From assembly GCA_002084955.1 (NCBI GenBank), contig MZGJ01000004.1, positions 3,155 through 67,154 of the forward strand: a DNA stretch of 64,000 bases. Direction: 5' to 3'. Of this stretch, positions 9,032 to 61,374 are shown one piece after another. The position numbers and the translations under genes were made by a program. This stretch comes from a candidate division CPR3 bacterium 4484_211 (GTDB taxonomy: Bacteria; Patescibacteriota; 4484-211). Below the pieces are notes generated by a model that saw only the letters and a program-made list of their open reading frames with translations, ran no database searches and had not been told where the DNA came from. Numbering within the stretch: the stretch's first letter is position 1; each line of letters opens with the position of its first letter.

Positions 9032-9190
9032 TTGTGCTGATTAAGATAGAATGTCCTTTTTTAAATGACCAAAACTTTCCCGTGTTGCGTCCGCTTTCAG
9101 GGCGGGGAAGCTTTACAGTAAAATAAATGGCAAAGAGGGTTTTTGTTTTGAGTTGACTGTAGAAATTGGGTCGATAAGGCATTTTGTGCT

Positions 9191-9883: not shown

Positions 9884-10579
9884 TTGAAGATTTCTATGCG
9901 GACCTTTAGATTTAAGCAGTCTCCTAAACTTCTTTTGTTTTTTTGCGTCTTCACTATGGTAGTGGTTATTTTCTTTATTGTTTATCCTTGGGTTAAGGAA
10001 ATTGTCTCTATGCGGGCTGATATGGTGAAGGAGAGAGCTTTATTGGAACAAAAGCTTATTCCCAAGGAGAAGGCTCTCCAATCGTTAAATGAAGAAGATT
10101 TAGACAAGATGATTTTACAGTTGGAAGAAGCTTTGCCGTCTTTCCCTTATGAAGTTACGGCCCTGTCCGTACTTGAGTCAATTGCCGTCGCCTCTGGGGT
10201 GAACTTGGGTGGTCTAAATGCCGCGGTGGCGGGTACTGGTTCGGTTGCCGGGGTGGATGCGGTTGTTGTGCCGTTGTTAGCAGACGCGGACAGATCGCAT
10301 TTGGTTGCCTTTTTAAAAAATCTTGATCGGGCTAAAAGAGTTTTGGCTCTTGAGCAGATATCGTTGGAGACGGATGGAGCAGTACTTCATATGACGGCAC
10401 AGGCGCTTGCTCCTTATTGTGAAGTTCCAGGTGAGTTGGGTCGGGTGGAGGATCCCCTGCCTCAATTGACCGCCGCTGACGAGGAGGTTTTGAATAAGGT
10501 TTCTCAACTAAATCTTTACGGGGTTTCTTTATCCAGGGAAGGACAGCAGGTTCCCGCCGGGAAAGAAAATCCTTTCTAA
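9884..10579 (+). CDS. pilO: Type IV pilus assembly protein PilO-like
   Basis: 231 aa, N-terminal TM (LLLFFCVFTMVVVIFFIVYPWV), then coiled coil. Third gene of the pilMNO order. Confidence 0.45.
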   Translation: MKISMRTFRFKQSPKLLLFFCVFTMVVVIFFIVYPWVKEIVSMRADMVKERALLEQKLIPKEKALQSLNEEDLDKMILQLEEALPSFPYEVTALSVLESIAVASGVNLGGLNAAVAGTGSVAGVDAVVVPLLADADRSHLVAFLKNLDRAKRVLALEQISLETDGAVLHMTAQALAPYCEVPGELGRVEDPLPQLTAADEEVLNKVSQLNLYGVSLSREGQQVPAGKENPF

Positions 10580-12437: not shown

Positions 12438-12627
12438 AATTGCACAGTTGCATAGTTGAACTCTTAAATGCTTCAGCTATGGCCGCATTTGCTTTTGGGT
12501 TTGATTGCAGCAGCAGATTCTTGCCGTGTGCCGAATGGTACTGCGGCTAGTCCGCAATCTTAAGCGCGCAGTAGGCCTGTAATTCAGTGATTAAAATAGG
12601 AGCCGCTTCTTGAAAAGGGCGAATTCG

Positions 12628-12678
12628 TGAAATGTCAAATTAAAAATGCCAAATGCCAAACCAAATCCAAATGACAAA
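12628..12678. repeat. AT-rich dispersed intergenic repeat (family 2), reverse orientation; core TTTGTCATTTGGATTTGGTTTGGCATTTGGCATTTTTAATTTGACATTT
   Basis: The reverse complement is 49/51 identical to 61322..61374. Related partial copies at 51276..51328 and 56149..56205. Confidence 0.6.
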
Positions 12679-12844
12679 TCTTAAACAAGGACCAAATCAC
12701 AATTTCTAAACTCTAAATACGGGAAAGTTTTGATTATTTAAATTCTGAATTCTGAATCCTGAATTTAGAATTTGTTTGTAATTTGGTGCTTGGTCATTTA
12801 TGATCTCTCCTTACTTCAGCTATGCGGCTTATGTAGCCAGGTAG

Positions 12845-13225: not shown

Positions 13226-13792
13226 TCAAACTTTGACTTTTGTCAAAAAGGATACTCCGGTTATTCCATAATTTCTGGTCTCTTCAAGGTTTAGCCCGAT
13301 GAGGGGTGGAACCTTGGTATCCTTGTGGTGCAGGTAAACTACCAAACCGTTTAACTTTAATTTTTCCGGCATTTTAGCTAAGGTATGGGTTATATTCAGT
13401 TCATAAGGCGGATCGGCAAAAATAAGGTGGTATTGGTTGGGCGGGCAGGAAAGAAGAAAGTTGTCGGCACTCATCCGGTGTATTTTAGTTTTGCCGAGGA
13501 AGGTTGAGTATTTGGCGTTTTGTTTTATGGAGCGGCAGGCTTCAATGCTGATATCAACAAAATCCACCCAACAGGCGCCGCGGGAGAGCGCTTCCAGCCC
13601 CAGGGAACCGGATCCGGCGTAAAGGTCAAGCACGCGGGCATTTTTAACCGCCTCATTGATAATGCTAAAAATAGCCTGCCGAACCATTCCCTTGGTCGGA
13701 CGAAGGTCTGGGACCGGCGGAATATGTAGTTGCTGTCCTTTGGCAAGACCTGCAGTGATGCGCACGATTAAAGCGTAGAGCTTAAGGTTCAA
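13226..13792 (-). CDS. rsmD: 16S rRNA (guanine966-N2)-methyltransferase RsmD
   Basis: LDLYAGSGSLGLEALSRGA (SAM-binding) and FADPPY motif. Confidence 0.85.
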   Translation of the reverse strand: MNLKLYALIVRITAGLAKGQQLHIPPVPDLRPTKGMVRQAIFSIINEAVKNARVLDLYAGSGSLGLEALSRGACWVDFVDISIEACRSIKQNAKYSTFLGKTKIHRMSADNFLLSCPPNQYHLIFADPPYELNITHTLAKMPEKLKLNGLVVYLHHKDTKVPPLIGLNLEETRNYGITGVSFLTKVKV

Positions 13793-15943: not shown

Positions 15944-16286
15944 AATTCAATTTTAGCATATTCTCCATGAATTCCTGCCTAGCCGGCGGGCAGGCGTAGA
16001 TGGGGTAGCGGCAATGCCTCAGTGCGGCATTGGTGGTTGGAAGAAACTATTTGAAGATTCTGCCATCTTTTTTCTAGCGGGCAAATAAACTAATGAGCGG
16101 CAAAAGAACCATGGAAAGAAGGGTGATGAAGATAAGAATAGTCCATAATTTTTGGTATTGATGGAAAAACTGCATAGATCTTGAATTTATTTTATTTAAA
16201 TTAACCCGGATAGCCCAGTATAAATAAAATTATAGCCGGGATATAACTTTAAGATTAAGCTGTGAATCTCCCTCGATAGGGTCTCG

Positions 16287-16321
16287 ATAGGGTGACACCC
16301 TTTTCAAGGGTGTCACCCTAT
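16287..16321. repeat. Hairpin repeat (family 3): ATAGGGTGACACCC-ttttcaa-GGGTGTCACCCTAT
   Basis: 13-14-bp perfect arms. Same arms at 48271..48305; half-site GAGGGTGACACCCC inside recG at ~15409. Confidence 0.6.
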
Positions 16322-16456
16322 TTGTGTTGATACTGAAAGCCATTCATTTGTCCCCTGACCGATGCCTTTCTGGATCATGCGTAATATTGGATTTGAGATT
16401 CTGCTCTTAAAAGCAAAATCTCAAACACGTTAGATCCTGCATGAAGCCGTTAACTA

Positions 16457-17668
16457 TTATGCCACTATTTTTACAAATTTCCTTTTGCCAACTTTAATTA
16501 CGGGCTTTTTGGTTGCATCTACGGTGAGTTCTGTGCTTGTTATTTTTTCTCCATTTACTTCTACTCCGCCCTGTTTAATTAGCCGCTTGGCTTCGGCTTT
16601 ACTGGAACAGAGATTGTAGACAGCCAGCAAATCTACGATATTGGTTTTATTTTTCTTAACTTTAATTATGGGAATTTCCTGAGGTATTTGGCCTTCTTGG
16701 ACCACTTTTTTAAAGAAAGCTTCGGCCTTTTCGGCTTCTTTTTCTCCGTGGTAAAATTTCGTTACCGTATAAGCGAGGAGTTTCTTTATTTCCATAGGGT
16801 TTTCTCCCTGATCCAACTGTTCTTGAAAATTGGAAATTTCTTCTTGCCCATAATCGGTGCACATCATGAGGTAGTTGATGATTAATTCGTCTTTTACAGA
16901 CATTAGTTTTCCGTACATATCTTTTGGTGAATCCCAAACATTAATGGTGTTGCCCAAACTTTTACTCATCTTGCGGCCGTCGGTACCCAAAAGCAAAGGA
17001 CAGGTGAAGACAAGTTTTTCTTTGTTTTTTAGCGATTTCATTAGGTTCCTGCCGGCAAGCATATTAAATGTTTGATCGGTTCCTCCAATTTCGGCGTCCA
17101 CATTCATGGCCACGGAGTCATATCCTTGCATCAACGGGTAAAAAAATTCGTGCAAGTAAATTGGCCTGTTTTGTTTAATTCTTTTTTGAAACATGTCGCG
17201 TTCAAGCATTTGTTGAACGGTAAAGTGTGAAGCCAGTTCAATTAAATCACCAAAGGCCAGTTTTGACAGCCAGGTGCTGTTAAATTTAATTTCGGCCGGA
17301 TTATCTCCTTTAAAGTCTATTAATATAGAGACTTGGTCTCTGTATGTTTGGGCATTTTTTTTAACTTCTTGGGGGGTCATTTGTACTCTGGCGGCCGTCT
17401 TATCGGTGGGGTCGCCGATCATGCCGGTGAAATCGCCGATCAGAAATATAACTTTGTGACCGAGGTTTTGAAATTCTCTTAGTTTACGTAAAACTACGGC
17501 GTGTCCGAGATGAATTTGCGGGCCGGAGGGATCAACGCCTATATAAATGGAAATTTGCTTGCCGCCAGTCAGCATTTTTTCGGCCGCCTCTTTTGATGGA
17601 TAGATGGAGTCGATGTTGTAAGATAGAAGATGGTCAAGTTGTTGTCGGGTTGGCTGTTTAATTCTCAC
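16457..17668 (-). CDS. tyrS: Tyrosyl-tRNA synthetase
   Basis: HIGH-type HLGHAV, KMSKS, C-terminal S4 domain. Confidence 0.9.
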   Translation of the reverse strand: MRIKQPTRQQLDHLLSYNIDSIYPSKEAAEKMLTGGKQISIYIGVDPSGPQIHLGHAVVLRKLREFQNLGHKVIFLIGDFTGMIGDPTDKTAARVQMTPQEVKKNAQTYRDQVSILIDFKGDNPAEIKFNSTWLSKLAFGDLIELASHFTVQQMLERDMFQKRIKQNRPIYLHEFFYPLMQGYDSVAMNVDAEIGGTDQTFNMLAGRNLMKSLKNKEKLVFTCPLLLGTDGRKMSKSLGNTINVWDSPKDMYGKLMSVKDELIINYLMMCTDYGQEEISNFQEQLDQGENPMEIKKLLAYTVTKFYHGEKEAEKAEAFFKKVVQEGQIPQEIPIIKVKKNKTNIVDLLAVYNLCSSKAEAKRLIKQGGVEVNGEKITSTELTVDATKKPVIKVGKRKFVKIVA

Positions 17669-28591: not shown

Positions 28592-28879
28592 TTATCTTGG
28601 TAGTTTGGTTAATCCTTGCTCCACTGCTCTGGCGATGATACCAATAAGGTTTCCGATAATCGGAATATCGCCGTAAAGGCTAAAGGCGTAGGCTATGATT
28701 CCAACTAAGACGGTGGCTCCCATTACCGTACCGAAACCCCAAGCCAGGCCGCCAATGAAGTTATTTCTAAAAATAAGTGAAAGAGGGATTTTGGCTCTTG
28801 CTTCGGCAATTTCTTCGTGGAAAACGTTTAATGCTTTCTTTTTCGGTTGATTGTTTTCCAAATTAACCATATTACCCAT
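28592..28879 (-). CDS. Hypothetical small membrane protein
   Basis: 95 aa with two TM segments (FIGGLAWGFGTVMGATVLVGIIAYAF; IIGNLIGIIA). The start codon overlaps a REP copy. Confidence 0.35.
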   Translation of the reverse strand: MGNMVNLENNQPKKKALNVFHEEIAEARAKIPLSLIFRNNFIGGLAWGFGTVMGATVLVGIIAYAFSLYGDIPIIGNLIGIIARAVEQGLTKLPR

Positions 28880-28899
28880 GAAGTACCCGGTACTTCATG
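28877..28899. repeat. REP copy A (full palindrome CATGAAGTACC-C-GGTACTTCATG)
   Basis: 11-bp perfect arms. Overlaps the ATG of the 28592..28879 gene and lies 100 nt from tRNA-Val. Confidence 0.8.
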
Positions 28900-28998
28900 T
28901 CGCTCTTGTTGCAACCAAAACCGGGTTGCTGTCTCCTGCGGCCTGCCTCGACTCGGGTTGCTTCTTGAAGAGAGTGTGGGGCGGCTGCCCAATATACC

Positions 28999-31392: not shown

Positions 31393-31556
31393 GGCGCTTT
31401 TAATTATAGAAGTTGGGAGGTCTTTATCAACTTCTGTCAGTCTCGAACTTTTTTTGCCCCTCAGCTTTGTTGTTGGAACTATTATTTTTGGTTAAGGGTG
31501 GGATTGGTGAGTTTACCCAGACGATTTGGGCGACTGGCCAGATGGCTGATATGAAG

Positions 31557-31579
31557 GCCTCATGAAGTACCGGGTACTG
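31557..31579 (+). repeat. REP copy B (GCCTCATGAAGTACCGGGTACTG); extended identity from 31542; adjacent internal duplication GGGTACTGCTC x2
   Basis: Exact 23-mer; supplies the ATG of the 31562 ORF (MKYRVLLGY...). Confidence 0.8.
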
Positions 31580-32428
31580 CTCGGGTACTGCTCCTGTTGC
31601 ATATTGGACAGCTGTTTGTTATACTTCGCGTTAATGTCAATCCCACAAGTTTCCTCAAGGAATACCAAAAACGAAATTTTGGCTGCTTATCAACAGTTAC
31701 GGGATATGGTAAGCCAGCGGAAGGAGACTCCGGCGGTGTCATTTCGCGGGAAGATTATTGCCCAGGTGGAGAAAATAGAAGCGAGCTTGGCGGCTAAGCA
31801 GGCCGAGGTAGGTGAATTAGAAGAAAGAATTGCACAGTTAAAGCAGGAGTTGCAACTGGGCGAGAGGATGAAGTTGACTCGGGAGCAGTTGGAAAAGTTG
31901 CAGGAAAAGATTGCCCAAGAAGAGCAGCGGTGGCAAAGACAGCGCCGCCAGTTGGAAGAAGAGCTGAAGGATGTGAGGTTGTGGAATGAGAAGCAATGGG
32001 AAAAAGAACTGGGGCAGAAACGGTGGGAATTGGAAATGGAGGAAAAGAAGAGAATGAGGATTCTTGAGGAAAAGGAAAAACTCTTCGGGCAGAAGGCGGC
32101 AGATTATAAGCAGTTAAAAGAGCAGGTAAAGTCTTTTCCTGAGCGGTTAGAGAAAGCGGCTAAAGATGGTATTTCGGAAGGTTTGGCGTCTGCAAGAGAA
32201 GAATTTGAGGTGGAGAAAAAGAGCATGAGGCAGCAGTTTGAATCGGAAAAGCAACTTTTAAATCAACAGATTGAAAATTTAGAAAACCGCCTGCAGGAAG
32301 AGAAGGAGGCAAAGAAGAGACTGGAACAGCAGTTGGCTTTGGCTTCTCAGCAGATTAAGCAACTGGCAGTGGCGGCACTGGAAAATAAAACATCTAAAGT
32401 TCAAGAAACAACTCCCAAGACTGCATAA
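31562..32428 (+). CDS. Hypothetical coiled-coil protein (E/K/Q/L-rich)
   Basis: 288 aa; heptad-like EELKxxLEE repeats throughout, no enzymatic motifs. Bracketed by direct REP copies. Confidence 0.4.
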   Translation: MKYRVLLGYCSCCILDSCLLYFALMSIPQVSSRNTKNEILAAYQQLRDMVSQRKETPAVSFRGKIIAQVEKIEASLAAKQAEVGELEERIAQLKQELQLGERMKLTREQLEKLQEKIAQEEQRWQRQRRQLEEELKDVRLWNEKQWEKELGQKRWELEMEEKKRMRILEEKEKLFGQKAADYKQLKEQVKSFPERLEKAAKDGISEGLASAREEFEVEKKSMRQQFESEKQLLNQQIENLENRLQEEKEAKKRLEQQLALASQQIKQLAVAALENKTSKVQETTPKTA

Positions 32429-32684
32429 GAATTCTTCTCGTCTAAGTTACTAGAGTTTTGTGGATCCTACTAGTTTCCTTTGTAGAAGTTAGTTTGAGCT
32501 CCGCTGGTGTCCTTTGGGTAATTTTTTGTTGAAAAAGGGCTTCTGTTCGGGTGGAATTGTTTAGAGAACTTGATTAGGAAAGTGGCTCAAATGGCGAGCC
32601 AACGAATTTTTCGCTTGAATAATTGGGATTATTGCTCTGGTAAATGGGTAAATTTAGTTTGATTCCACTATGGCTGATATGAAA

Positions 32685-32707
32685 GCCTCATGAAGTACCG
32701 GGTACTG
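32685..32707 (+). repeat. REP copy C (exact 23-mer); extended identity from 32670 (ATGGCTGATATGAAAGCC...)
   Basis: 37/38 nt identical to 31542..31579. Confidence 0.8.
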
Positions 32708-38272: not shown

Positions 38273-38683
38273 CTATAGGTCGAGATCAATTTGGGGAGCT
38301 TCGTCGAGGTTCGAGAATTCAGCTTCGTCAAACAACGCACCAATAGCTCCCAGCTCATTGTTTTCTTCTGAAGCGGCCACGGTGGGTTCGGTAAAAAATG
38401 ACTTGAGTTCCTCGGCGGCTATTGTAGGAACGGTCGTAGGAGTAGGGCTGGCGGTCGGTGTTGGCGCGGGTGTGGGAGTAGTCGTGGTGATACTTTCCAG
38501 ATGGTCATTTTGCTGTTGCCCATACAAATAGACTAGGGTGGTGGTGAGAATAGCCAGTAACAAGATGATAAATAACAATTTGATGCTGCTTGGATGCGAA
38601 CTGGGTTTAACGAAAGGATTATCAGAGTTTTTTGCTTGCGCATCAGTACTGGTTTGCGTGTTGATATTATTGAATTCGTTCAT
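38273..38683 (-). CDS. Hypothetical secreted/membrane-anchored protein with Thr/Pro-rich segment
   Basis: TM LLFIILLLAILTTTLVYLYG then TTTPTPAPTPTASPTPTTVPT; 136 aa. Confidence 0.35.
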   Translation of the reverse strand: MNEFNNINTQTSTDAQAKNSDNPFVKPSSHPSSIKLLFIILLLAILTTTLVYLYGQQQNDHLESITTTTPTPAPTPTASPTPTTVPTIAAEELKSFFTEPTVAASEENNELGAIGALFDEAEFSNLDEAPQIDLDL

Positions 38684-41076: not shown

Positions 41077-41291
41077 TATCCTTCACCCCCTTCTTAATGA
41101 TCCCGATATCGCATCGGGAGAACTAGAGCCTGCCTGCTGCCATGACGGCGACACAACTTCGCTAAGCTCTAAAGGCTGAGACGGCTCAGTGGGCATACTA
41201 AAAGCGATCTAAGATAACTTTAATTTAATCCTATTCTAGCTTCTTATTTTTGTCAATGGCAATTGGAGGACGTGTTAAGTGCTGGAGCGGC

Positions 41292-41367
41292 GGAGGGGTC
41301 TCGAACCCCCGACCTTTTGCTTGGCAAGCAAATGTTCTGCCAACTGAACTACCGCCGCAAGCTACTA
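41292..41367 (-). tRNA. tRNA-Gly (anticodon GCC), CCA encoded
   Basis: GCGGCGGUAGUUCAGUUGGCAGAACAUUUGCUUGCCAAGCAAAAGGUCGGGGGUUCGAGACCCCUCCGCCGCUCCA. Confidence 0.85.
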
Positions 41368-41395
41368 ATTTATTATACCAGACTTGGTGGGTTCG

Positions 41396-41472
41396 GTAGG
41401 GCTTGAACCTACGACCTTCTGGGTGTAAACCAGACGCTCTAGCCAGCTGAGCTACGAACCCTATAACATTGT
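41396..41472 (-). tRNA. tRNA-Val (anticodon UAC), CCA encoded
   Basis: GGGUUCGUAGCUCAGCUGGCUAGAGCGUCUGGUUUACACCCAGAAGGUCGUAGGUUCAAGCCCUACCGAACCCACCA. Confidence 0.85.
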
Positions 41473-41530: not shown

Positions 41531-41602
41531 GCTCCGTTAGCTCAGTGGTAGAGCAGTGGTCTCTTAAACCATTGGTCGTAGGTTCGAATCCTACACGGAG
41601 CA
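41531..41602 (+). tRNA. tRNA-Lys (anticodon CUU), 3' CCA not encoded
   Basis: GCUCCGUUAGCUCAGUGGUAGAGCAGUGGUCUCUUAAACCAUUGGUCGUAGGUUCGAAUCCUACACGGAGCA followed by CUUCCA. Confidence 0.8.
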
Positions 41603-41610
41603 CTTCCAAA

Positions 41611-41634
41611 CAGTACCCGGTACTTCATGAGGCC
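41611..41634 (-). repeat. REP copy D (reverse orientation), 5' flank of the RAYT gene
   Basis: CAGTACCCGGTACTTCATGAGGCC is the exact reverse complement of the REP consensus. 9 nt after tRNA-Lys, 20 nt before the RAYT start. Confidence 0.8.
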
Positions 41635-41654
41635 TACGGTGCAAGGAATAAACG

Positions 41655-42422
41655 ATGGCGCGACAGTTGGGTCTTTACACGGATAATTTTTATCATATTT
41701 TTAACAGGGGAGCGTTAAAACGGGAGATTTTTTTGGATGATGGGGATTATTTTAGGTGGGTTAAGTTGATGTACTGGTGTTTACGCTACAATTATTCCCT
41801 TAGTAAATTTCTAAGTCGAGTTGATTTCATGCGCAGGACTGGCGAGGATTCTGGTCAGGTGGAGAAGGAAATCGCCAAATTCTATTCATTACCTCAGAGA
41901 CCTGTTGAGATGATTGCTTGGGTTTTAATGCCCAATCACTTTCACCTTGTGCTAAAGCAGCTTGTGGAGGCAGGCATTTCTAGTTTTATGCATCGCCTTA
42001 CCAGTTCGTATTCTCATTATTTTAATCGCAAATATGAAGGGACAGGGACTCTTTTCCAGGGTCGGTTTCGGGCCGTTCTTGTTGATACGGAGGAACAGTT
42101 CTTGCACCTTTGTCGATACGTTCATATTAATCCGTTATCGGCCGGGCTAGCAAGCAGGCAGACTTTGCCAGACTACTCTTGGTCTTCTTTCCGGTATTAT
42201 ATGATGGGAAAAGATGACTTGGTAACTACGAGAGAATATCTTGAGAGTTATTTTCCTTCGATACGTTTGTTAGGGGAATTTACCTTGGCGGGTTCTGTTA
42301 ATCAAGAGGCCTATTTAATTGAAGGATTAACAATTGATGACGATTTTGGATGGTATGAAGAGAAACGCGCTTGTGAGAAAATACGGCGCGACAATTTGAT
42401 AGAGGAAGTGTTTAAGGCCTAG
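41655..42422 (+). CDS. REP-associated tyrosine transposase (RAYT; IS200/IS605 TnpA-like HuH Y1 transposase)
   Basis: YHIFNRGALKREIFLDD (N-terminal motif), HuH MPNHFHLVL, catalytic-Tyr region SYSHYFNRKYEGTGTLFQGRF, YVHINP. 255 aa, longer than IS200 TnpA, as RAYTs are. Confidence 0.7.
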   Translation: MARQLGLYTDNFYHIFNRGALKREIFLDDGDYFRWVKLMYWCLRYNYSLSKFLSRVDFMRRTGEDSGQVEKEIAKFYSLPQRPVEMIAWVLMPNHFHLVLKQLVEAGISSFMHRLTSSYSHYFNRKYEGTGTLFQGRFRAVLVDTEEQFLHLCRYVHINPLSAGLASRQTLPDYSWSSFRYYMMGKDDLVTTREYLESYFPSIRLLGEFTLAGSVNQEAYLIEGLTIDDDFGWYEEKRACEKIRRDNLIEEVFKA

Positions 42423-42432
42423 TGGCAGTGAC

Positions 42433-42451
42433 ATGAAGTGCCGGGTACTGC
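42433..42451 (+). repeat. REP copy E (direct orientation, 1 mismatch: CATGAAGTGCCGGGTACTG), 3' flank of the RAYT gene
   Basis: 11 nt after the RAYT stop; inverted relative to copy D. Confidence 0.7.
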
Positions 42452-42457
42452 TCTGGC

Positions 42458-43663
42458 TTGGTGGGTATGAGGTATTTTATTAAAACTTTCGGGTGTCAGA
42501 TGAATATGGCGGATTCGGAAAGGTTGGCGGCGATGCTGGAGGGCCGCGGTTTGAAACGGGCGGAGAATATTAGAGATGCTGATTACATAGTTATTAATAC
42601 CTGCATGGTTCGTCAGAGCGCCGAAAACCGTATTTATGGATTGGTAAATAACCTTGGCAGGCAACGAGCGGCAATGAAGAAACCTCAAAAGATTGTTCTT
42701 ACCGGTTGTTTGGTGGGAGTGGCTCTGGGAGATCGAACTGGCAAGATGTTGAAACTTTTTAAAAAAAGGATGCCGGCGGTTGATGAGTTTTTGCCTATAC
42801 AGGAAGTAGGCTTTGATTATGTTCCGAAGCGCTCCCATCGTAGACATGCCTGGGTGCCTATTTCCAACGGGTGCAATAATTTCTGTTCTTATTGCGTGGT
42901 CCCCTACGCCCGCGGGAGAGAGATTTCACGGCCGTTTGCCGATATCTTTAGAGAATGCCGGATACTTAAAAAGCAGGGGTATCAAGAAGTTACCCTGCTG
43001 GGTCAGAATGTGAATTCCTATGGGAATGATTTGATGAAAGATCCCAAATTTCAAGCACCGAATTCTAAACAAATTCAAGATACCAATGATCAAGATCCCA
43101 AACACAAAGAAAGTTGTAAACATTTAAATTTAGATTGTTTAGAATTGGTCGGAAATTACGACTTGGGGTTTGAGATTTCTCACGTCTTTACTTTATTCCC
43201 ATATCTTCTTAAAGCGGTAGCTGAGCTAGGATTTGAGAGGGTTAATTTCATTTCTTCCAATCCCTGGGATTTTTCGGAGGAATTAATAGAGGTGATTGCA
43301 GGCAACGCAAATATTAGCCGACAAATTCATTTGCCAGTACAGTCGGGGGATAATCAGATATTAAAAAGAATGAATCGTCCCTATACAAGAGAAGAGTATG
43401 TTAAGTTAATTGAGCGGATAAGGCAAAGAATACCTGGGGTTTGTTTTTCCACGGATATTATTGTGGGTTTTCCCGGTGAGACTGAACAAGCTTTTCAAAA
43501 TACGGTAAATTTGTGTCAACAGGTTGGTTTTAAAAAGGCTTATATTGCCATGTACTCCCCCCGCCCCCTAACTGCTGCCAGCCGTCTTTACAAGGACGAT
43601 GTGCCGCACCTGGAGAAAAGAAGAAGATGGAGAGTTTTGGAGCAGCTCATTAACAGGAAGTAA
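42458..43663 (+). CDS. MiaB/RimO-family radical-SAM methylthiotransferase
   Basis: UPF0004 N-domain FIKTFGCQMNMADSE...NTCMV; radical SAM CNNFCSYCVVPYARG. Contains a low-complexity insertion (KDPKFQAPNSKQIQDTNDQDPKHKE). Confidence 0.7.
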   Translation: MVGMRYFIKTFGCQMNMADSERLAAMLEGRGLKRAENIRDADYIVINTCMVRQSAENRIYGLVNNLGRQRAAMKKPQKIVLTGCLVGVALGDRTGKMLKLFKKRMPAVDEFLPIQEVGFDYVPKRSHRRHAWVPISNGCNNFCSYCVVPYARGREISRPFADIFRECRILKKQGYQEVTLLGQNVNSYGNDLMKDPKFQAPNSKQIQDTNDQDPKHKESCKHLNLDCLELVGNYDLGFEISHVFTLFPYLLKAVAELGFERVNFISSNPWDFSEELIEVIAGNANISRQIHLPVQSGDNQILKRMNRPYTREEYVKLIERIRQRIPGVCFSTDIIVGFPGETEQAFQNTVNLCQQVGFKKAYIAMYSPRPLTAASRLYKDDVPHLEKRRRWRVLEQLINRK

Positions 43664-48122: not shown

Positions 48123-48270
48123 TTGTGAGATTGAAGTCTCTGAGAGCTATCAGATGTTAAGTTTTAAGAATAGGGTGCGGTAAATGGATAGTATTTTGGT
48201 ATCTAAACAGGACAGCGCCTGTAAAATATTTTTGAGAATGGGTCGTAAATGCCCAGCCCAGCAGTAAAAA

Positions 48271-48305
48271 ATAGGGTGACACCCTCAAAGAGGGTGTCAC
48301 CCTAT
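48271..48305. repeat. Hairpin repeat (family 3): ATAGGGTGACACCC-tcaaaga-GGGTGTCACCCTAT
   Basis: Same arms as 16287..16321 with a different loop. On the minus strand it is followed by UUUUUU. In the uvrB/cca divergent region. Confidence 0.6.
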
Positions 48306-48354
48306 CTGGCTACAGACTAAAGTCTAGTTGCGGAAACGAAGCACAGTTTGGGAT

Positions 48355-50930: not shown

Positions 50931-51308
50931 TTATTTCTTCTTTCCCTTTAGTATCGTGGAAAAAATCAAAGTCAGCTCGTGGGCCTCTTTCCATAATTGT
51001 TTGCACTTATCCTTCTTGACAGGATATGCTTTGGTAAGCATTCGTACCCAATGCATCGTTTCTTTAGCTTCCTTCCTGCAGAGACTAATTTTGTGTTTGA
51101 AATCCCTCTTCGATTCTGCCGCATCTGCTTCCATGTAGTTTGCACCAATACTTGTTCCTGATCTAACTACCTGACTTACAAGTGGGCGGATTACGGTCGT
51201 ATTTGGTAATTTTTGGGCAAATTCCACAATACTTTCTCCAAATGTTGCCGTTCTTTCTTCTAGGTCGTATACTTTTTTGTCATTTGGGTTTTGGATTTGG
51301 TTTGTCAT
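50931..51308 (-). CDS. Four-helix-bundle protein (TIGR02436-type, the family often encoded in 23S rRNA intervening sequences)
   Basis: IRPLVSQVVRSGTSIGANYMEADAAESKRDFKHKISLCRKEAKETMHWVRM is characteristic. No rRNA sequence flanks it. Confidence 0.65.
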   Translation of the reverse strand: MTNQIQNPNDKKVYDLEERTATFGESIVEFAQKLPNTTVIRPLVSQVVRSGTSIGANYMEADAAESKRDFKHKISLCRKEAKETMHWVRMLTKAYPVKKDKCKQLWKEAHELTLIFSTILKGKKK

Positions 51309-51328
51309 TTGAACTTTGTCCTTTGACG
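51276..51328. repeat. AT-rich repeat family 2, partial copy (TTTGTCATTTGGGTTTTGGATTTGGTTTGTCATTTGAACTTTGTCCTTTGACG)
   Basis: Shares TTTGTCATTTGG, GGATTTGGTTTG and TTTGAC modules with 61322..61374. Confidence 0.45.
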
Positions 51329-51393
51329 CTTCCCTTATAGATTGAAAATTGTAAATTGGAAGTTGGGGGCTGGATTATTTTTACGTTTTGCAC

Positions 51394-56148: not shown

Positions 56149-56205
56149 ATTTGTCATTCGGATTTTGGGTTTGACTTAACACTTGAACTTTGTCATTTGA
56201 CATTT
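56149..56205. repeat. AT-rich repeat family 2, partial copy (TTTGTCATTCGGATTTTGGGTTTGACTTAACACTTGAACTTTGTCATTTGACATTTT)
   Basis: Upstream of eno; same modules as the other family-2 copies. Confidence 0.45.
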
Positions 56206-56744: not shown

Positions 56745-59012
56745 CTATCTACTTTGTACCATACTTGCTTCCGCTTTGGCAACTAGTTGTTTAACTTTAT
56801 AAAATGCGTCCGGGTTGACCGAGATAGAAGAGATACCCCATTCGACTAATTTTTGCACAAACTCTGGATAGACGCTGGGCGCTTGGCCGCAGATGGAACA
56901 CAAAATGCGGTGTTTGCGGCATTCTTTAATTACCTTTTCAATTACCTCCATAACTGCAGGATTGGTTTCATTCAGGGTGCTTCCTAAGACGGGGTTGTCT
57001 CGGTCGGCGGCCAAGATTAGCTGGGTTAGATCGTTGGATCCAATGGAGACTCCGTCAATGCCGACGCCGATAAAACGTTCCAACAAGATGGCGCTGGCCG
57101 GCGTTTCCACCATGATAAAGAGTTTAAATGACGGAGAGCGGTAGAGGTTATTGGCGGCCAGTACTTTTTTTATTTCAATTAATTCCTCAACTGTTCTTAA
57201 GAATGGAATCATCAGCCAGAGATTTTTGTAGTATTGTCTGACTTTTTTTATCGCCTCGAGCTCCAGTTGAAAGACCTGCGGGTCTTTAATGTAGCGCAGG
57301 GCGCCGCGCATCCCCAGCATGGGGTTGGCTTCTTCTTCCTCGTATTTATCTCCGCCTTTTAGATTACGGTATTCATTAGTTTTAAAATCAGTTGTTCGGT
57401 AAATTACCGGCCGGGGTTTAAAGGACTTGGTGAAAATACGGAGTCCGTTTTCCAGTTCTTTTATAAATTGATCTTGTTTTCCCTGTTTAATTAAGTATTT
57501 TGGATGCACGCCGATGCCGGCAATCATAAACTCGGCTCTAAGCAGGCCGACTCCGTCCACCGGCAGTTTGGCAATTTCTTCAGCGCGTTCCGGCTCGGCA
57601 AGGTTCACATAAATTTTGGTTGCTGTCTTACTGGCGGCAATTTGCTCTTTATTTGTGGCAACTTGTTGATTTCCGCTTATTTGCTGCGCTAAATCTCCTG
57701 TGTAAACTACGCCGTTTTGCCCATCTATGGTGACCGTTTCTCCGGAGGCTAGAGTGTTGGTGGCGACTTCGGTTCCAACAATGCAGGGAATTCCCAATTC
57801 ACGGGAGATAATCGCCGCGTGACAGGTGGTTCCTCCCTCGTCGGTGATAATGGCCGCCGCTTTTTTCATGGCGGGAACGAAATCGGGAGTGGTCATGGTG
57901 GTGACCAGAATTTCTCCTTTACGTATTTTACTGATTTCCTTGGCGCTTTTAAGTTTTTTAACCTTGCCGCTGACCACGCCCGGGCTGGCGCCCAGACCTT
58001 TGAGGATAATTTTTTCATCAAACACCCCAAAATCAGTACCCGGTACTTCATGAGGCTTTTGTGTAAGGGTTGTCACCGGTCTGGTCTGGACAATATAAAT
58101 TTTGTTTTTCCAAATTGCCCATTCAATATCTTGAGGAAATTGGTAGTGTTTTTCCAGTGCCTTGCCGATTTTAGCCAATTCCTTAATTAGTTGATCACTG
58201 ATTTTTTGCTTCTTGCGCCAGTCCCGCGAAACGGCAACTTCACCTTTTTGGGTAATCATTTTGTCTTGAGGGACAATCTTTTTGGTTACGATCTCTAAAC
58301 TGTCTTTGTTTACCTGGTAGTGATCGGGGGTAATGCTGCCGGAAACAATGCCCTCCCCCAGCCCGTAAATGGCCTCAATGGTGATGATCTTGGGATTGTT
58401 GGAGATGGGGTCTACGGTGAATTCTATGCCGGACATTTGCGACTGGATCATTTTCTGTACGGGTACGGCTACTCCGACTTTAAAATGGTCAAATTTCTTT
58501 TGCTCGCGATAGTATATGGACCGGGCGGTAAATAAAGACGCCCAGCATTTTTTGACCGCCTCTGCCACCTGGTTGGGCCCGCTAATGTTAAGGAAGGTTT
58601 CCTGCTGGCCGGCAAAAGAAGCTTCGGGCAAGTCTTCGGCAGTGGCCGAAGAACGCACGGCTACTTTGGTTCTAGCACCGAGCTTTTTATAGGCCTGCGT
58701 AATTTCCTTTTCTATCTTGGGGGGTATCTGGGATTGGATGATAAGTAACTTGATGTTGGCGCTCGCTTTTTGAAGTGAATTGGTGTTTTCTACTTCTATG
58801 GGATTGAGGATTTCTTTTAGCTTTTGGGTGAGCTTATTTTCTTTTAAAAAATAGAAATAGGCGTTGGCGGTAACACAGAATCCTTCCGGAACGGGAAACC
58901 CGGCCTGGGTCATTTCTCCTAAATTGGCCGCTTTTCCACCGACTTCGTTAAGATCCTTTTTGTTGATTTCCTTAAACCACTTGACAAACTGCATGACAGG
59001 CGCAATCTTCAA
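56745..59012 (-). CDS. ppsA: Phosphoenolpyruvate synthase (pyruvate, water dikinase)
   Basis: N-terminal PPDK_N (VGGKAANLGEM), phospho-His domain GGTTCHAAIISRELGIPCIVG, C-terminal PEP-utilising TIM barrel; 755 aa. Contains an in-frame REP copy. Confidence 0.8.
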   Translation of the reverse strand: MKIAPVMQFVKWFKEINKKDLNEVGGKAANLGEMTQAGFPVPEGFCVTANAYFYFLKENKLTQKLKEILNPIEVENTNSLQKASANIKLLIIQSQIPPKIEKEITQAYKKLGARTKVAVRSSATAEDLPEASFAGQQETFLNISGPNQVAEAVKKCWASLFTARSIYYREQKKFDHFKVGVAVPVQKMIQSQMSGIEFTVDPISNNPKIITIEAIYGLGEGIVSGSITPDHYQVNKDSLEIVTKKIVPQDKMITQKGEVAVSRDWRKKQKISDQLIKELAKIGKALEKHYQFPQDIEWAIWKNKIYIVQTRPVTTLTQKPHEVPGTDFGVFDEKIILKGLGASPGVVSGKVKKLKSAKEISKIRKGEILVTTMTTPDFVPAMKKAAAIITDEGGTTCHAAIISRELGIPCIVGTEVATNTLASGETVTIDGQNGVVYTGDLAQQISGNQQVATNKEQIAASKTATKIYVNLAEPERAEEIAKLPVDGVGLLRAEFMIAGIGVHPKYLIKQGKQDQFIKELENGLRIFTKSFKPRPVIYRTTDFKTNEYRNLKGGDKYEEEEANPMLGMRGALRYIKDPQVFQLELEAIKKVRQYYKNLWLMIPFLRTVEELIEIKKVLAANNLYRSPSFKLFIMVETPASAILLERFIGVGIDGVSIGSNDLTQLILAADRDNPVLGSTLNETNPAVMEVIEKVIKECRKHRILCSICGQAPSVYPEFVQKLVEWGISSISVNPDAFYKVKQLVAKAEASMVQSR
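58034..58056 (-). repeat. REP copy F inside ppsA coding sequence (exact 23-mer, reverse orientation)
   Basis: CAGTACCCGGTACTTCATGAGGC on the plus strand. Read in the ppsA frame it encodes ...KPHEVPGTD... in the linker between the ATP-grasp-like N-domain and the phospho-His domain. Confidence 0.8.
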
Positions 59013-60567: not shown

Positions 60568-61290
60568 TCACTGCTTCGGTTTGCTGATTAAATCCGGTCT
60601 ATATTTTTCGGTTAACTCTTTGGCTTTTTCTTTCCTCCACTTTTCAATTTCTTTGTGATTTCCAGAGGTTAGAATTTCGGGTACTTTCATGCCTTCAAAT
60701 TCTTCGGGGCGGGTGTATTGGGGATACTTGAGCAGACTTTTTTGGTAACTAAATGATTCTGCCTGCCTAGAGGCCTCTTTCCCCAGCACCCCGGGTATTA
60801 GGCGGGAGACGGCGTCTACAATAACCATGGCCGGCAGCTCACCGCCGGTGAGTATGTAGTCACCGATGCATAAACGTTCATCAGCTATGTGGTTAAAGAT
60901 GCGCTGGTCAACTCCTTCGTAGTGGCCGCAGATGATGATGATGTGCTGAAGGTCGGAGAGTTTTTTGGCTATTCGGTGATTAAATTTCCGCCCGGCGGGG
61001 GAGGTGAGAATTACGTGGGAAAAGCCTTTTTTCCGTTTACGCTTTTGTGTTTGACTAAATTTATCTTTAAGCTGTTGTACAGCTCTAAATACTGGCTCAA
61101 CTTTAAGAATCATCCCCTCCCCTCCTCCGTAGGGTTTATCGTCCACCGTTTTGTGTTTGTCGGTTGCCCATTTTCTAAGATTGTGGATGTTTATGCTAAG
61201 TAGATTTTTATCAACCGCCCTCTTGATGATAGATTCATCAAAAGGCCCTTTAAACATGTTGGGGAAGAGTGTAAGAATGTCAATGGTCAT
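60568..61290 (-). CDS. trmD: tRNA (guanine37-N1)-methyltransferase
   Basis: MTIDILTLFPNMF...PYGGGEGMIL; SPOUT knot region ILICGHYEGVDQR. Confidence 0.9.
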   Translation of the reverse strand: MTIDILTLFPNMFKGPFDESIIKRAVDKNLLSINIHNLRKWATDKHKTVDDKPYGGGEGMILKVEPVFRAVQQLKDKFSQTQKRKRKKGFSHVILTSPAGRKFNHRIAKKLSDLQHIIIICGHYEGVDQRIFNHIADERLCIGDYILTGGELPAMVIVDAVSRLIPGVLGKEASRQAESFSYQKSLLKYPQYTRPEEFEGMKVPEILTSGNHKEIEKWRKEKAKELTEKYRPDLISKPKQ

Positions 61291-61321
61291 AATTCAGATA
61301 ACCAAAATTTTCCCGTGTTTG

Positions 61322-61374
61322 AAATTTGTCATTTGGATTTGGTTTGGCATTGGGCATTTTTAATTTGACATTTT
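61322..61374. repeat. AT-rich dispersed intergenic repeat (family 2), reference copy AAATTTGTCATTTGGATTTGGTTTGGCATTGGGCATTTTTAATTTGACATTTT
   Basis: Near-identical (49/51) to the reverse complement of 12628..12678. Immediately upstream of trmD. Confidence 0.6.

Follow-up and report, generated by a model that had tools for sequence, protein, structure and literature searches.

A stretch of 64 kb of DNA from candidate division CPR3 bacterium 4484_211, referred to below as the window, encodes a single Y1 HUH protein whose gene has inverted copies of a short palindromic repeat on both its sides, and raises the question of whether the enzyme and the repeat belong together and, if so, in which kind of system. 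A preliminary description made from the sequence had considered the locus to be a REPtron as known in proteobacteria, with a RAYT gene (REP-associated tyrosine transposase) flanked by repetitive extragenic palindromes (REPs), in a genome resembling those of the candidate phyla radiation (CPR). The source, a CPR3 bacterium, bears out the last of these points. In the current analysis we have found the interpretation to be essentially right and have refined it in three respects: the unit is best regarded as a TIRtron (TIR, terminal inverted repeat), the enzyme is like those of TnpA-Y1 subclass 2.1, and the repeat is non-canonical. We consider it quite probable that the locus is an element of the REPtron/TIRtron type, in which a gene of the RAYT superfamily, present once in the window and encoding a Y1 HUH endonuclease/ligase of single-stranded DNA, is accompanied by two inverted cognate repeats and from which the repeat would have spread in trans.

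The Y1 gene and its flanking repeats

The open reading frame (ORF) of the Y1 gene encodes a protein of 255 residues that is 100% identical to B5M47_00930 of the same bacterium. All the motifs that had been quoted as hallmarks of IS200 and RAYT proteins, namely YHIFNRG, MPNHFHLVL, SYSHYFNRKY, GTLFQGRF and YVHINP, are present in it. The gene and its two flanking repeats make up a unit of 840 bp, the coordinates of which are given in Table 1 along with those of the other features. The upstream repeat begins 7 nt past the end of the tRNA-Lys gene and lies 20 nt ahead of the ATG codon. The downstream 24-nt unit begins 4 nt past the stop codon, and 16 nt separate its end from the likely start of miaB, the downstream neighbour (ATG at 42467, MRYFIKTFGCQMN). 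Within it, the 19-nt stretch CATGAAGTGCCGGGTACTG at 42432-42450 matches the reverse complement of the upstream repeat at all but 1 of 19 nt. The inversion, the upstream distance and the single mismatch are as previously described, whereas the distance from the stop codon to the 19-nt match is 9 nt and not 11.

A search with the 19-mer, allowing up to 3 mismatches, has identified 6 sites in the window against 0.02 expected from shuffled sequences; 7 matches are listed for these sites, as a palindromic copy scores on both strands. The corresponding figures for the 24-mer are 4 sites and 0.00. The presence of six copies in 64 kb, in both orientations, is thereby confirmed, and relaxed searches with the core and with each half of the repeat did not detect any further degenerate copies in the window. 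Five of the six copies are intergenic and the sixth is located inside ppsA.

The assembly of the window deserves attention in this context. At window position 38593, a run of ten N is inserted in an ENA scaffold (L034); the match of an independent assembly (L035) begins only at 38613, upstream of which this assembly has a DUF2254 gene instead. The window may be a scaffold of two contigs with a probable junction at 38593-38613. This would lend some colour to the explanation that the repeat family is an artefact of mis-joined contigs from different organisms, or else a chance product of ordinary composition. Copies of the repeat, however, are found both before and after the junction, and this speaks for a single genome as the source of the two halves; the flanking copies are confirmed in the independent assemblies L019, L034 and L035. 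The 18-mer AGTACCSGGTACTTCATG gives only single, unrelated matches in 185,579 reference genomes and the JGI metagenomes, with the exception of L019, a 1.5-kb contig of the same locus with 98.1% identity; the other contigs of the 4484_211 metagenome-assembled genome (MAG) gave no match in either collection scan with this 18-mer. A chance origin of the flanking copies, for which the preliminary description had still allowed, is effectively excluded by the shuffles (0.00-0.02 sites expected against 4-6 observed), and artefact and chance together can practically be discounted.

Recurrence of the arrangement at homologous loci

The contigs of ten homologues sharing 31-48% identity were fetched, so that eleven loci are available counting the window. 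Most of these contigs have a gene content of the CPR type and one is named Candidatus Paceibacterota. In nine of the eleven loci the gene is accompanied by a short palindrome of its own, which is different in each lineage and is found in nearby intergenic gaps as well (loci with L numbers in Table 1). The link between gene and repeat is therefore a family trait, and the association first noted in the window holds across the homologous loci. As the sequence of the palindrome varies by lineage and its position beside the Y1 gene is constant, the arrangement carries the hallmark of a cognate pair of enzyme and repeat, and is hard to reconcile with an unrelated regulatory site of the host.

As a control, the best match between the upstream and downstream flanks was determined for 123 other ORFs in the window and six homologue loci. 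The control scores have a median of 8 and a 95th percentile of about 11, against scores of 16, 13, 38, 19, 17, 14 and 7 for the Y1 genes in the same seven sources; the Y1 gene of L028, evaluated with a comparable scorer, reaches 18. The few outliers among the controls, where examined, are genes situated between dispersed repeat copies.

The form of the palindrome differs considerably among the loci. The doublets of L037 are REPIN-like, and GTAG is found at the foot of 2 of the 4 palindrome copies of L030. The intragenic palindromes of L033 and L038 share their codon position, and in both loci the 3' end of the gene is overlapped by a further copy. The intragenic palindromes of these two loci and of L024 resemble the intragenic REPs reported for subclass 2.4.

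The homologous loci also bear on the view that the unit is an autonomous insertion sequence, in which gene and terminal inverted repeats move together and the four solo copies are relics of past insertions, either solo ends or similar to miniature inverted-repeat transposable elements, and not repeats that a resident, domesticated enzyme has spread in trans. The homologous genes sit in unrelated genomic contexts. In L026 (9929-10798) the Y1 gene with two double palindromes is lodged between rplA and rplJ, within an otherwise conserved rplKAJL cluster, which implies that the whole unit moves on evolutionary time scales. The flanking copies in the window are formally 19-nt terminal inverted repeats with one mismatch, and Group 1 RAYTs, as delineated by Bertels et al. 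2017, are the most insertion-sequence-like RAYT group by duplication rate and plasmid carriage (PMC5581495). The gene, however, is single-copy in the window according to tblastn, and each homologue locus likewise has one. No tnpB partner is found beside it, its neighbours being tRNA-Lys and miaB, and its tyrosine motif (YVHINP) is of the Y---NP form of class 2 and not the Y---Q of IS200 (PMC6006769, Table 1). Solo copies outnumber gene copies, reaching ten per gene in L037, and in the window they are 24-nt units without gene remnants. An autonomous insertion sequence is hence regarded by us as an unlikely explanation of the locus.

The encoded protein

The Pfam family Y1_Tnp (PF01797) matches residues 82-157 of the protein with 36.9 bits against a cut-off of 23 (E 4.7e-9), in agreement with the expectation of the preliminary description, and is also matched by 60 of 60 aligned homologues. 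The sole sequence match in PDB is TnpA-REP of E. coli (4ER8, E 7e-5). An AlphaFold2 model based on the alignment of 60 sequences has a pLDDT of 94.9, and its top match in a Foldseek comparison with PDB is again 4er8_A (E 1.6e-7, TM 0.67 on target), followed by the TnpA structures of IS608, ISDra2 and IS200, all with a probability of 1.00.

The HuH motif, H95-F-H97, is located on strand 95-102 of the model, and the catalytic tyrosine, Y155 in YVHINP, on helix 146-162; the HUH/Tyr active site is thus intact, and the fold that holds it is like that of TnpA-REP. Residues H14, G19, N94, H95, H97, G131, Y155 and N159 are invariant in the 60 homologues, and P160 is conserved in at least 90% of them. 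The family consensus derived from the 60 sequences comprises YHIYNRG, LMPNHFHLVL, LFQGRFKAV, RYxHLNP and YxWSS. Two parts of the model go beyond TnpA-REP, namely three helices inserted between strands 1 and 2 and a C-terminal tail, likewise helical, which carries WSS and LTIDDDFGWY; the closest clade keeps the LTIDDDFGWY tail plus a charged helix. A C-terminal helix-turn-helix domain as in subclass 2.1.1 was considered and rejected, as Bac_DnaA_C, HTH_23 and HTH_28 gave no Pfam match at E <= 0.05 in any of the 60 members.

Diagnostic motifs for twelve TnpA-Y1 subclasses have been provided by Quentin et al. 2018 (PMC6006769, Table 1). The signature of subclass 2.1 consists of NH[YF]H, FQ in place of WQ/WE, Y[IV]HLNP and SS in the proximal tail, with a median length of 238 residues, while DH[LF]H and WE or WQ are characteristic of subclasses 2.2 and 2.5, the classical ones associated with REPs (PMC6006769). 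Judged by these published motifs, which are not profiles, the combination of NHFH, LFQGRF, YVHINP, WSS and a length of 255 residues matches subclass 2.1 only among the twelve. On this basis the protein is classified as TnpA-Y1 subclass 2.1-like, corresponding to Group 1 RAYT and TIRYT, and not as a classical proteobacterial RAYT.

Anatomy of the repeat

The repeat, in the form CAGTACCSGGYACTTCATG, is an asymmetric unit of 24 nt, in which the palindrome AGTACC-S-GGTACT is followed by a conserved tail, TCATG, plus AGGCY or TCRCT. Oriented by the tail, the six copies read [C/A]AGTACC-C-GG[T/C]ACTTCATG and then continue into one of the two tails. The central base is invariant relative to the asymmetric tail in all six copies, and they are therefore considered to descend from one asymmetric unit and not from independent palindromes. 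The Y1 gene has a type A copy upstream and a type B copy downstream, mutually inverted.

Some of the solo copies have features of their own. The copy at 28877 is of a 'double foot' form with the CATGA foot at either side, and occupies the gap that separates the 3' end of tRNA-Val(GAC) from the start of an ORF of 95 residues. It alone folds stably as single-stranded DNA (-8.1 kcal/mol, z = -5.5). The copies at 31556 and 32684 have a 14-nt extension in common, resulting in a shared unit of 38 nt; they are in direct orientation, 1128 bp apart, and bracket an ORF encoding a coiled-coil protein of 288 residues. The 31556 copy is adjoined by a partial tandem duplication (CAGTACCCGAG followed by CAGTACCCGG), which is possibly a footprint of repeat processing or of slippage. 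The copy in ppsA, the gene for phosphoenolpyruvate synthase, encodes ..KPHEVPGT.. in the linker between the ATP-grasp and PEP-utiliser domains. This linker is hypervariable in length and sequence in an alignment of 20 orthologues; that of the window is no longer than in these orthologues, and an insertion of the 58034 copy cannot be read from the protein alignment.

Perfect arms about a single central base are typical of sites for dimeric proteins that bind double-stranded DNA. Together with the weak single-strand hairpin and the closeness of the copies to gene starts and ends, they bring up the explanation that the repeats are regulatory or structural sites of the host, such as operators of dimeric proteins, RNA stability elements or terminators, in which the enzyme takes no part. 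The two flanking copies, however, do not overlap any promoter-like or terminator-like site and are not followed by a T-run, and the Rfam matches in the window are tRNAs only. A terminator or promoter role of the flanking copies was rejected on these grounds. One copy lies within a coding sequence, and the palindrome, despite its variation by lineage, is directly beside the homologous gene in 9 of 11 loci. Coincidence with the embedded restriction sites GGTACC and CCSGG was rejected likewise, because the palindrome differs per lineage yet stays beside the Y1 gene. Host sites are, in our estimate, a decidedly improbable explanation.

Proposed mechanism and contrary evidence

E. coli TnpA-REP and IS608 TnpA bind their repeats as single-stranded DNA and cleave alongside them through a 5'-phosphotyrosine intermediate. 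By analogy, the enzyme encoded in the window would recognise the repeat on transiently single-stranded DNA, and the conserved bases beside the stem, here CATGA, may act as a recognition or guide element. Cleavage would take place next to the repeat with the help of a metal bound by the HuH motif and of Tyr155, via a 5'-phosphotyrosine, and rejoining of the ends could spread or rearrange the repeats in trans. Over evolutionary time the repeat would in this manner have been copied or moved into the gaps between genes and, in one case, into a protein linker that tolerates it.

A number of observations weigh against a REPtron/TIRtron-type element with such a mechanism. The canonical GT[AG]G guide is missing from the repeat: a GT[AG]G foot is absent from all six copies, in which the bases beside the stem are CATGA on one strand and CAG on the opposite strand. 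As single-stranded DNA, five of the six copies form a stem of 5 bp or none at all, with energies of -1.6 to -3.7 kcal/mol that are within the range of shuffled sequences; the 5-bp stem of a typical copy has -1.6 to -1.9 kcal/mol. The hairpin with a 5' GTAG-like tetranucleotide that had been anticipated is thus not borne out. The designation of the repeat as a REP element does not hold in its canonical sense either, the foot being absent and the stem being 5-6 bp and not thermodynamically distinctive. Recognition of double-stranded DNA by a dimer would be just as compatible with a palindrome that has a single central base and, given the weak hairpin together with that central base, the repeat may be read in this form.

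The remaining contrary points concern the protein, the published record and the sampling. The RAYT equivalog of NCBIfam, NF047646 (REP_Tyr_transpos), covers residues 81-176 with 62.3 bits, below its cut-off of 80; the identification as RAYT stands as far as a Y1 HUH protein with TnpA-REP 4ER8 as its nearest solved relative is concerned, but not at the level of this equivalog. Subclass 2.1 has been reported without REP-like sequences and equated with the TIRYTs of Di Nocera et al. (PMC6006769). Two of the eleven loci, L031 and L029, are without a convincing flanking repeat. The counts of repeat and gene cover 64 kb of the genome. The comparison of contigs, which had been suggested as a check for polymorphic REP copies, revealed no presence/absence polymorphism, the copies being identical in L019, L034 and L035; what looked like indels between L026 and L027 was rejected as polymorphism, being runs of N.

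Significance

The kind of system identified here is already known, and what the present data add is the repetition of the arrangement across homologue loci of the CPR type. To our knowledge, the characterisation of REP/RAYT and TIR/TIRYT systems has been confined almost wholly to Proteobacteria, Cyanobacteria and Bacteroidetes. Full-text literature searches found no paper on RAYT or REP with CPR or Patescibacteria, save for a KEGG annotation that a 2026 preprint on Nanobdellota gives in passing; the statement that such systems had not been described in CPR agrees with this, the annotation aside. The present unit is probably the first of the REP/RAYT type to be documented in CPR.

More tentatively, a wider proposal may be made, which we hold to be possible but somewhat short of an even chance: a large subclass 2.1-like clade of Y1 HUH proteins would be resident across CPR/Patescibacteria, each lineage being co-diversified with a minimal GTAG-less palindrome (arms of 5-9 bp, single central base) that populates intergenic gaps, linkers and the gene itself. 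If this is true, 'resident replicators' of the REPIN/RAYT type persist in streamlined genomes of about 1 Mb, and their mode of recognition differs from the GTAG-hairpin paradigm of E. coli. The recurrence of the logic of a gene plus its cognate repeat in ultra-small CPR genomes shows that such elements tolerate extreme streamlining or are of use under it. The short GTAG-less palindromes are candidate substrates for the enzymes of subclass 2.1, a subclass without a known substrate. In practical terms, the arrangement is a reason against a plain 'IS200-like transposase' label in the annotation of these genes, and the lineage-specific repeats provide natural markers for the binning and strain typing of CPR MAGs.

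Genomic setting and other repeats

The upstream neighbours of the unit are three tRNA genes (Table 1), and the cluster had been proposed to be a landing site of a mobile element. The tRNA genes and their strands are confirmed, but the relation is one of mere adjacency; the homologues are in unrelated contexts. The closest ortholog of miaB (62% identity, L036) has a neighbourhood that is not conserved.

The window has a second family of dispersed repeats, which are AT-rich, about 50-110 nt in length and of the form ..AAATAACCAAAAYTTTCCCGTGTT..TTTGTCATTTGGATTTGGTTTGGCATTTGGCATTTTTAATTTGACATTT; two of its copies are 93% complementary over 61 nt. A near-perfect palindrome of 38 nt occurs in two copies. 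It may represent either another REP-like family or a terminator common to both sites, and no partner gene for it is seen in the window.

Table 1. Features of the window and palindromes at homologous loci (L numbers)
Feature	Position	Strand	Sequence and remarks
Y1 HUH gene	41655..42422	+	
Upstream flanking repeat, type A	41611-41634	+	CAGTACCCGGTACTTCATGAGGCC; CAGTACC-C-GGTACTTCATGAGGCC; copy in L019, L034, L035
Downstream flanking repeat, type B	42427..42450	-	CAGTACC-C-GGCACTTCATGTCACT; copy in L034, L035
Solo copy, type B	28877..28904	+	11+1+11 perfect palindrome CATGAAGTACC-C-GGTACTTCATG at 28877-28899, plus TCGCT
Solo copy, type A	31542..31590 (core 31556-31579)	-	Divergent intergenic region
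Solo copy, type A	32670..32707 (core 32684-32707)	-	Convergent intergenic gap
Intragenic copy, type A	58034..58057	+	In frame within ppsA (56745..59012, -)
Tail type A	Copies 31556, 32684, 41611, 58034		AGGCY
Tail type B	Copies 28877, 42432		TCRCT
tRNA-Gly	41283-41358	-	ARAGORN, Rfam
tRNA-Val	41385-41461	-	ARAGORN, Rfam
tRNA-Lys	41531-41603	+	ARAGORN, Rfam
AT-rich repeat family	2915-2998, 9053-9086, 12626-12750 (-), 51272-51332, 56150-56205, 61286-61373		All in gaps between long ORFs
38-nt palindrome	16286-16323, 48269-48306		ATAGGGTGACACCC-(7 nt)-GGGTGTCACCCTAT; both intergenic
L026	More at 13421, 17179; partial at 15961		37-nt double palindrome AAGCCCTAGATAAGGGCT-A-AGCCCTTATCTAGGGCTT on both sides of the gene
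L028	One each in the other two intergenic gaps of the 3.9-kb contig		TTATAGCTCC-S-GGAGCTATAA on both sides
L030	Two more downstream, 4 in total		TCAACACC-S-GGTGTTGAATCGT on both sides
L032	One weaker copy (3 mismatches) at 17361		CCACCTT-S-AAGGTGG (right arm AAGGTGGAA) on both sides
L024	One in gene (10182-10200), one further on		TATAGAGC-TTC-GCTCTATA-type palindromes, two upstream, one downstream
L033, L038	Inside gene, nt 10173-10185		GAGGAC-S-GTCCTC upstream and at the 3' end of the gene
L037	9813-9946, 10704-10837; ten palindrome copies in 20.7 kb		135-nt doublet of CAAAGCTC-N-GAGCTTTG with internal hairpin, on both sides

Comparison with known systems

The elements of the IS200/IS605 family (IS608 and ISDra2 TnpA; subclass 1.1) resemble the unit of the window in the HUH/Y1 fold and in having sub-terminal palindromes beside the gene. 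They differ from it in several respects, as the window gene has Y---NP in place of Y---Q, is present in one copy in the 64 kb and has no tnpB. Its flanks are inverted copies of one repeat, unlike the distinct left and right ends of these elements, which are on one strand, and the repeats greatly outnumber the gene.

The resemblance to the classical REPtron lies in a gene, single-copy within the window, between inverted short palindromes that are otherwise dispersed intergenically. E. coli TnpA-REP (subclass 2.2, 4ER8) is the best match of the protein both in sequence and in fold and shares the Y---NP motif, but the identity in the structural alignment is 17% and the window protein has about 90 extra residues. 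The repeat differs from the classical GTAG-tagged REP/BIME sequences, which are stable imperfect hairpins of about 20-40 nt with bulged stems of about 10-15 bp, in its short stem and in the missing GT[AG]G foot. In-frame REP copies have been documented in flexible protein linkers and inside tnpA-REP genes (PMC6006769, PMC3733652), and the copy in the linker of ppsA is comparable to these.

With subclass 2.1, Group 1 RAYTs and TIRYTs the gene shares its motifs, its length (255 residues against a median of 238) and, as far as the 64 kb of the window go, its low copy number. The 16-mers that flank Group 1 genes are only modestly over-represented (PMC5581495). Three differences from subclass 2.1 and class 2 are apparent. 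The family of the window has no detectable Bac_DnaA_C, HTH_23 or HTH_28 domain among its 60 members. Where Quentin et al. found no REP-like sequences, 9 of 11 loci have them here. Class 2 genes have been reported to favour large genomes (PMC6006769), whereas the genome of the present host, a CPR bacterium, is reduced.

Di Nocera et al. 2013 have described RAYT-like genes between terminal inverted repeats of varied sequence, and in some of these TIRtrons the inverted repeats show partial self-complementarity and are members of a family of moderate abundance (PMC3733652). The inverted repeats of the window (19 nt, 1 mismatch) differ from TIRYT terminal repeats, which often carry GGGGWSAS, in lacking this motif. 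The likeness to such TIRtrons is close, the gene being bracketed here too by partly self-complementary inverted repeats of a moderately abundant family. Of the original designation as a proteobacterial REPtron, the bracketing of the gene by a dispersed repeat stands and the label is to be amended: the unit is an atypical REPtron, for which TIRtron is the most fitting name.

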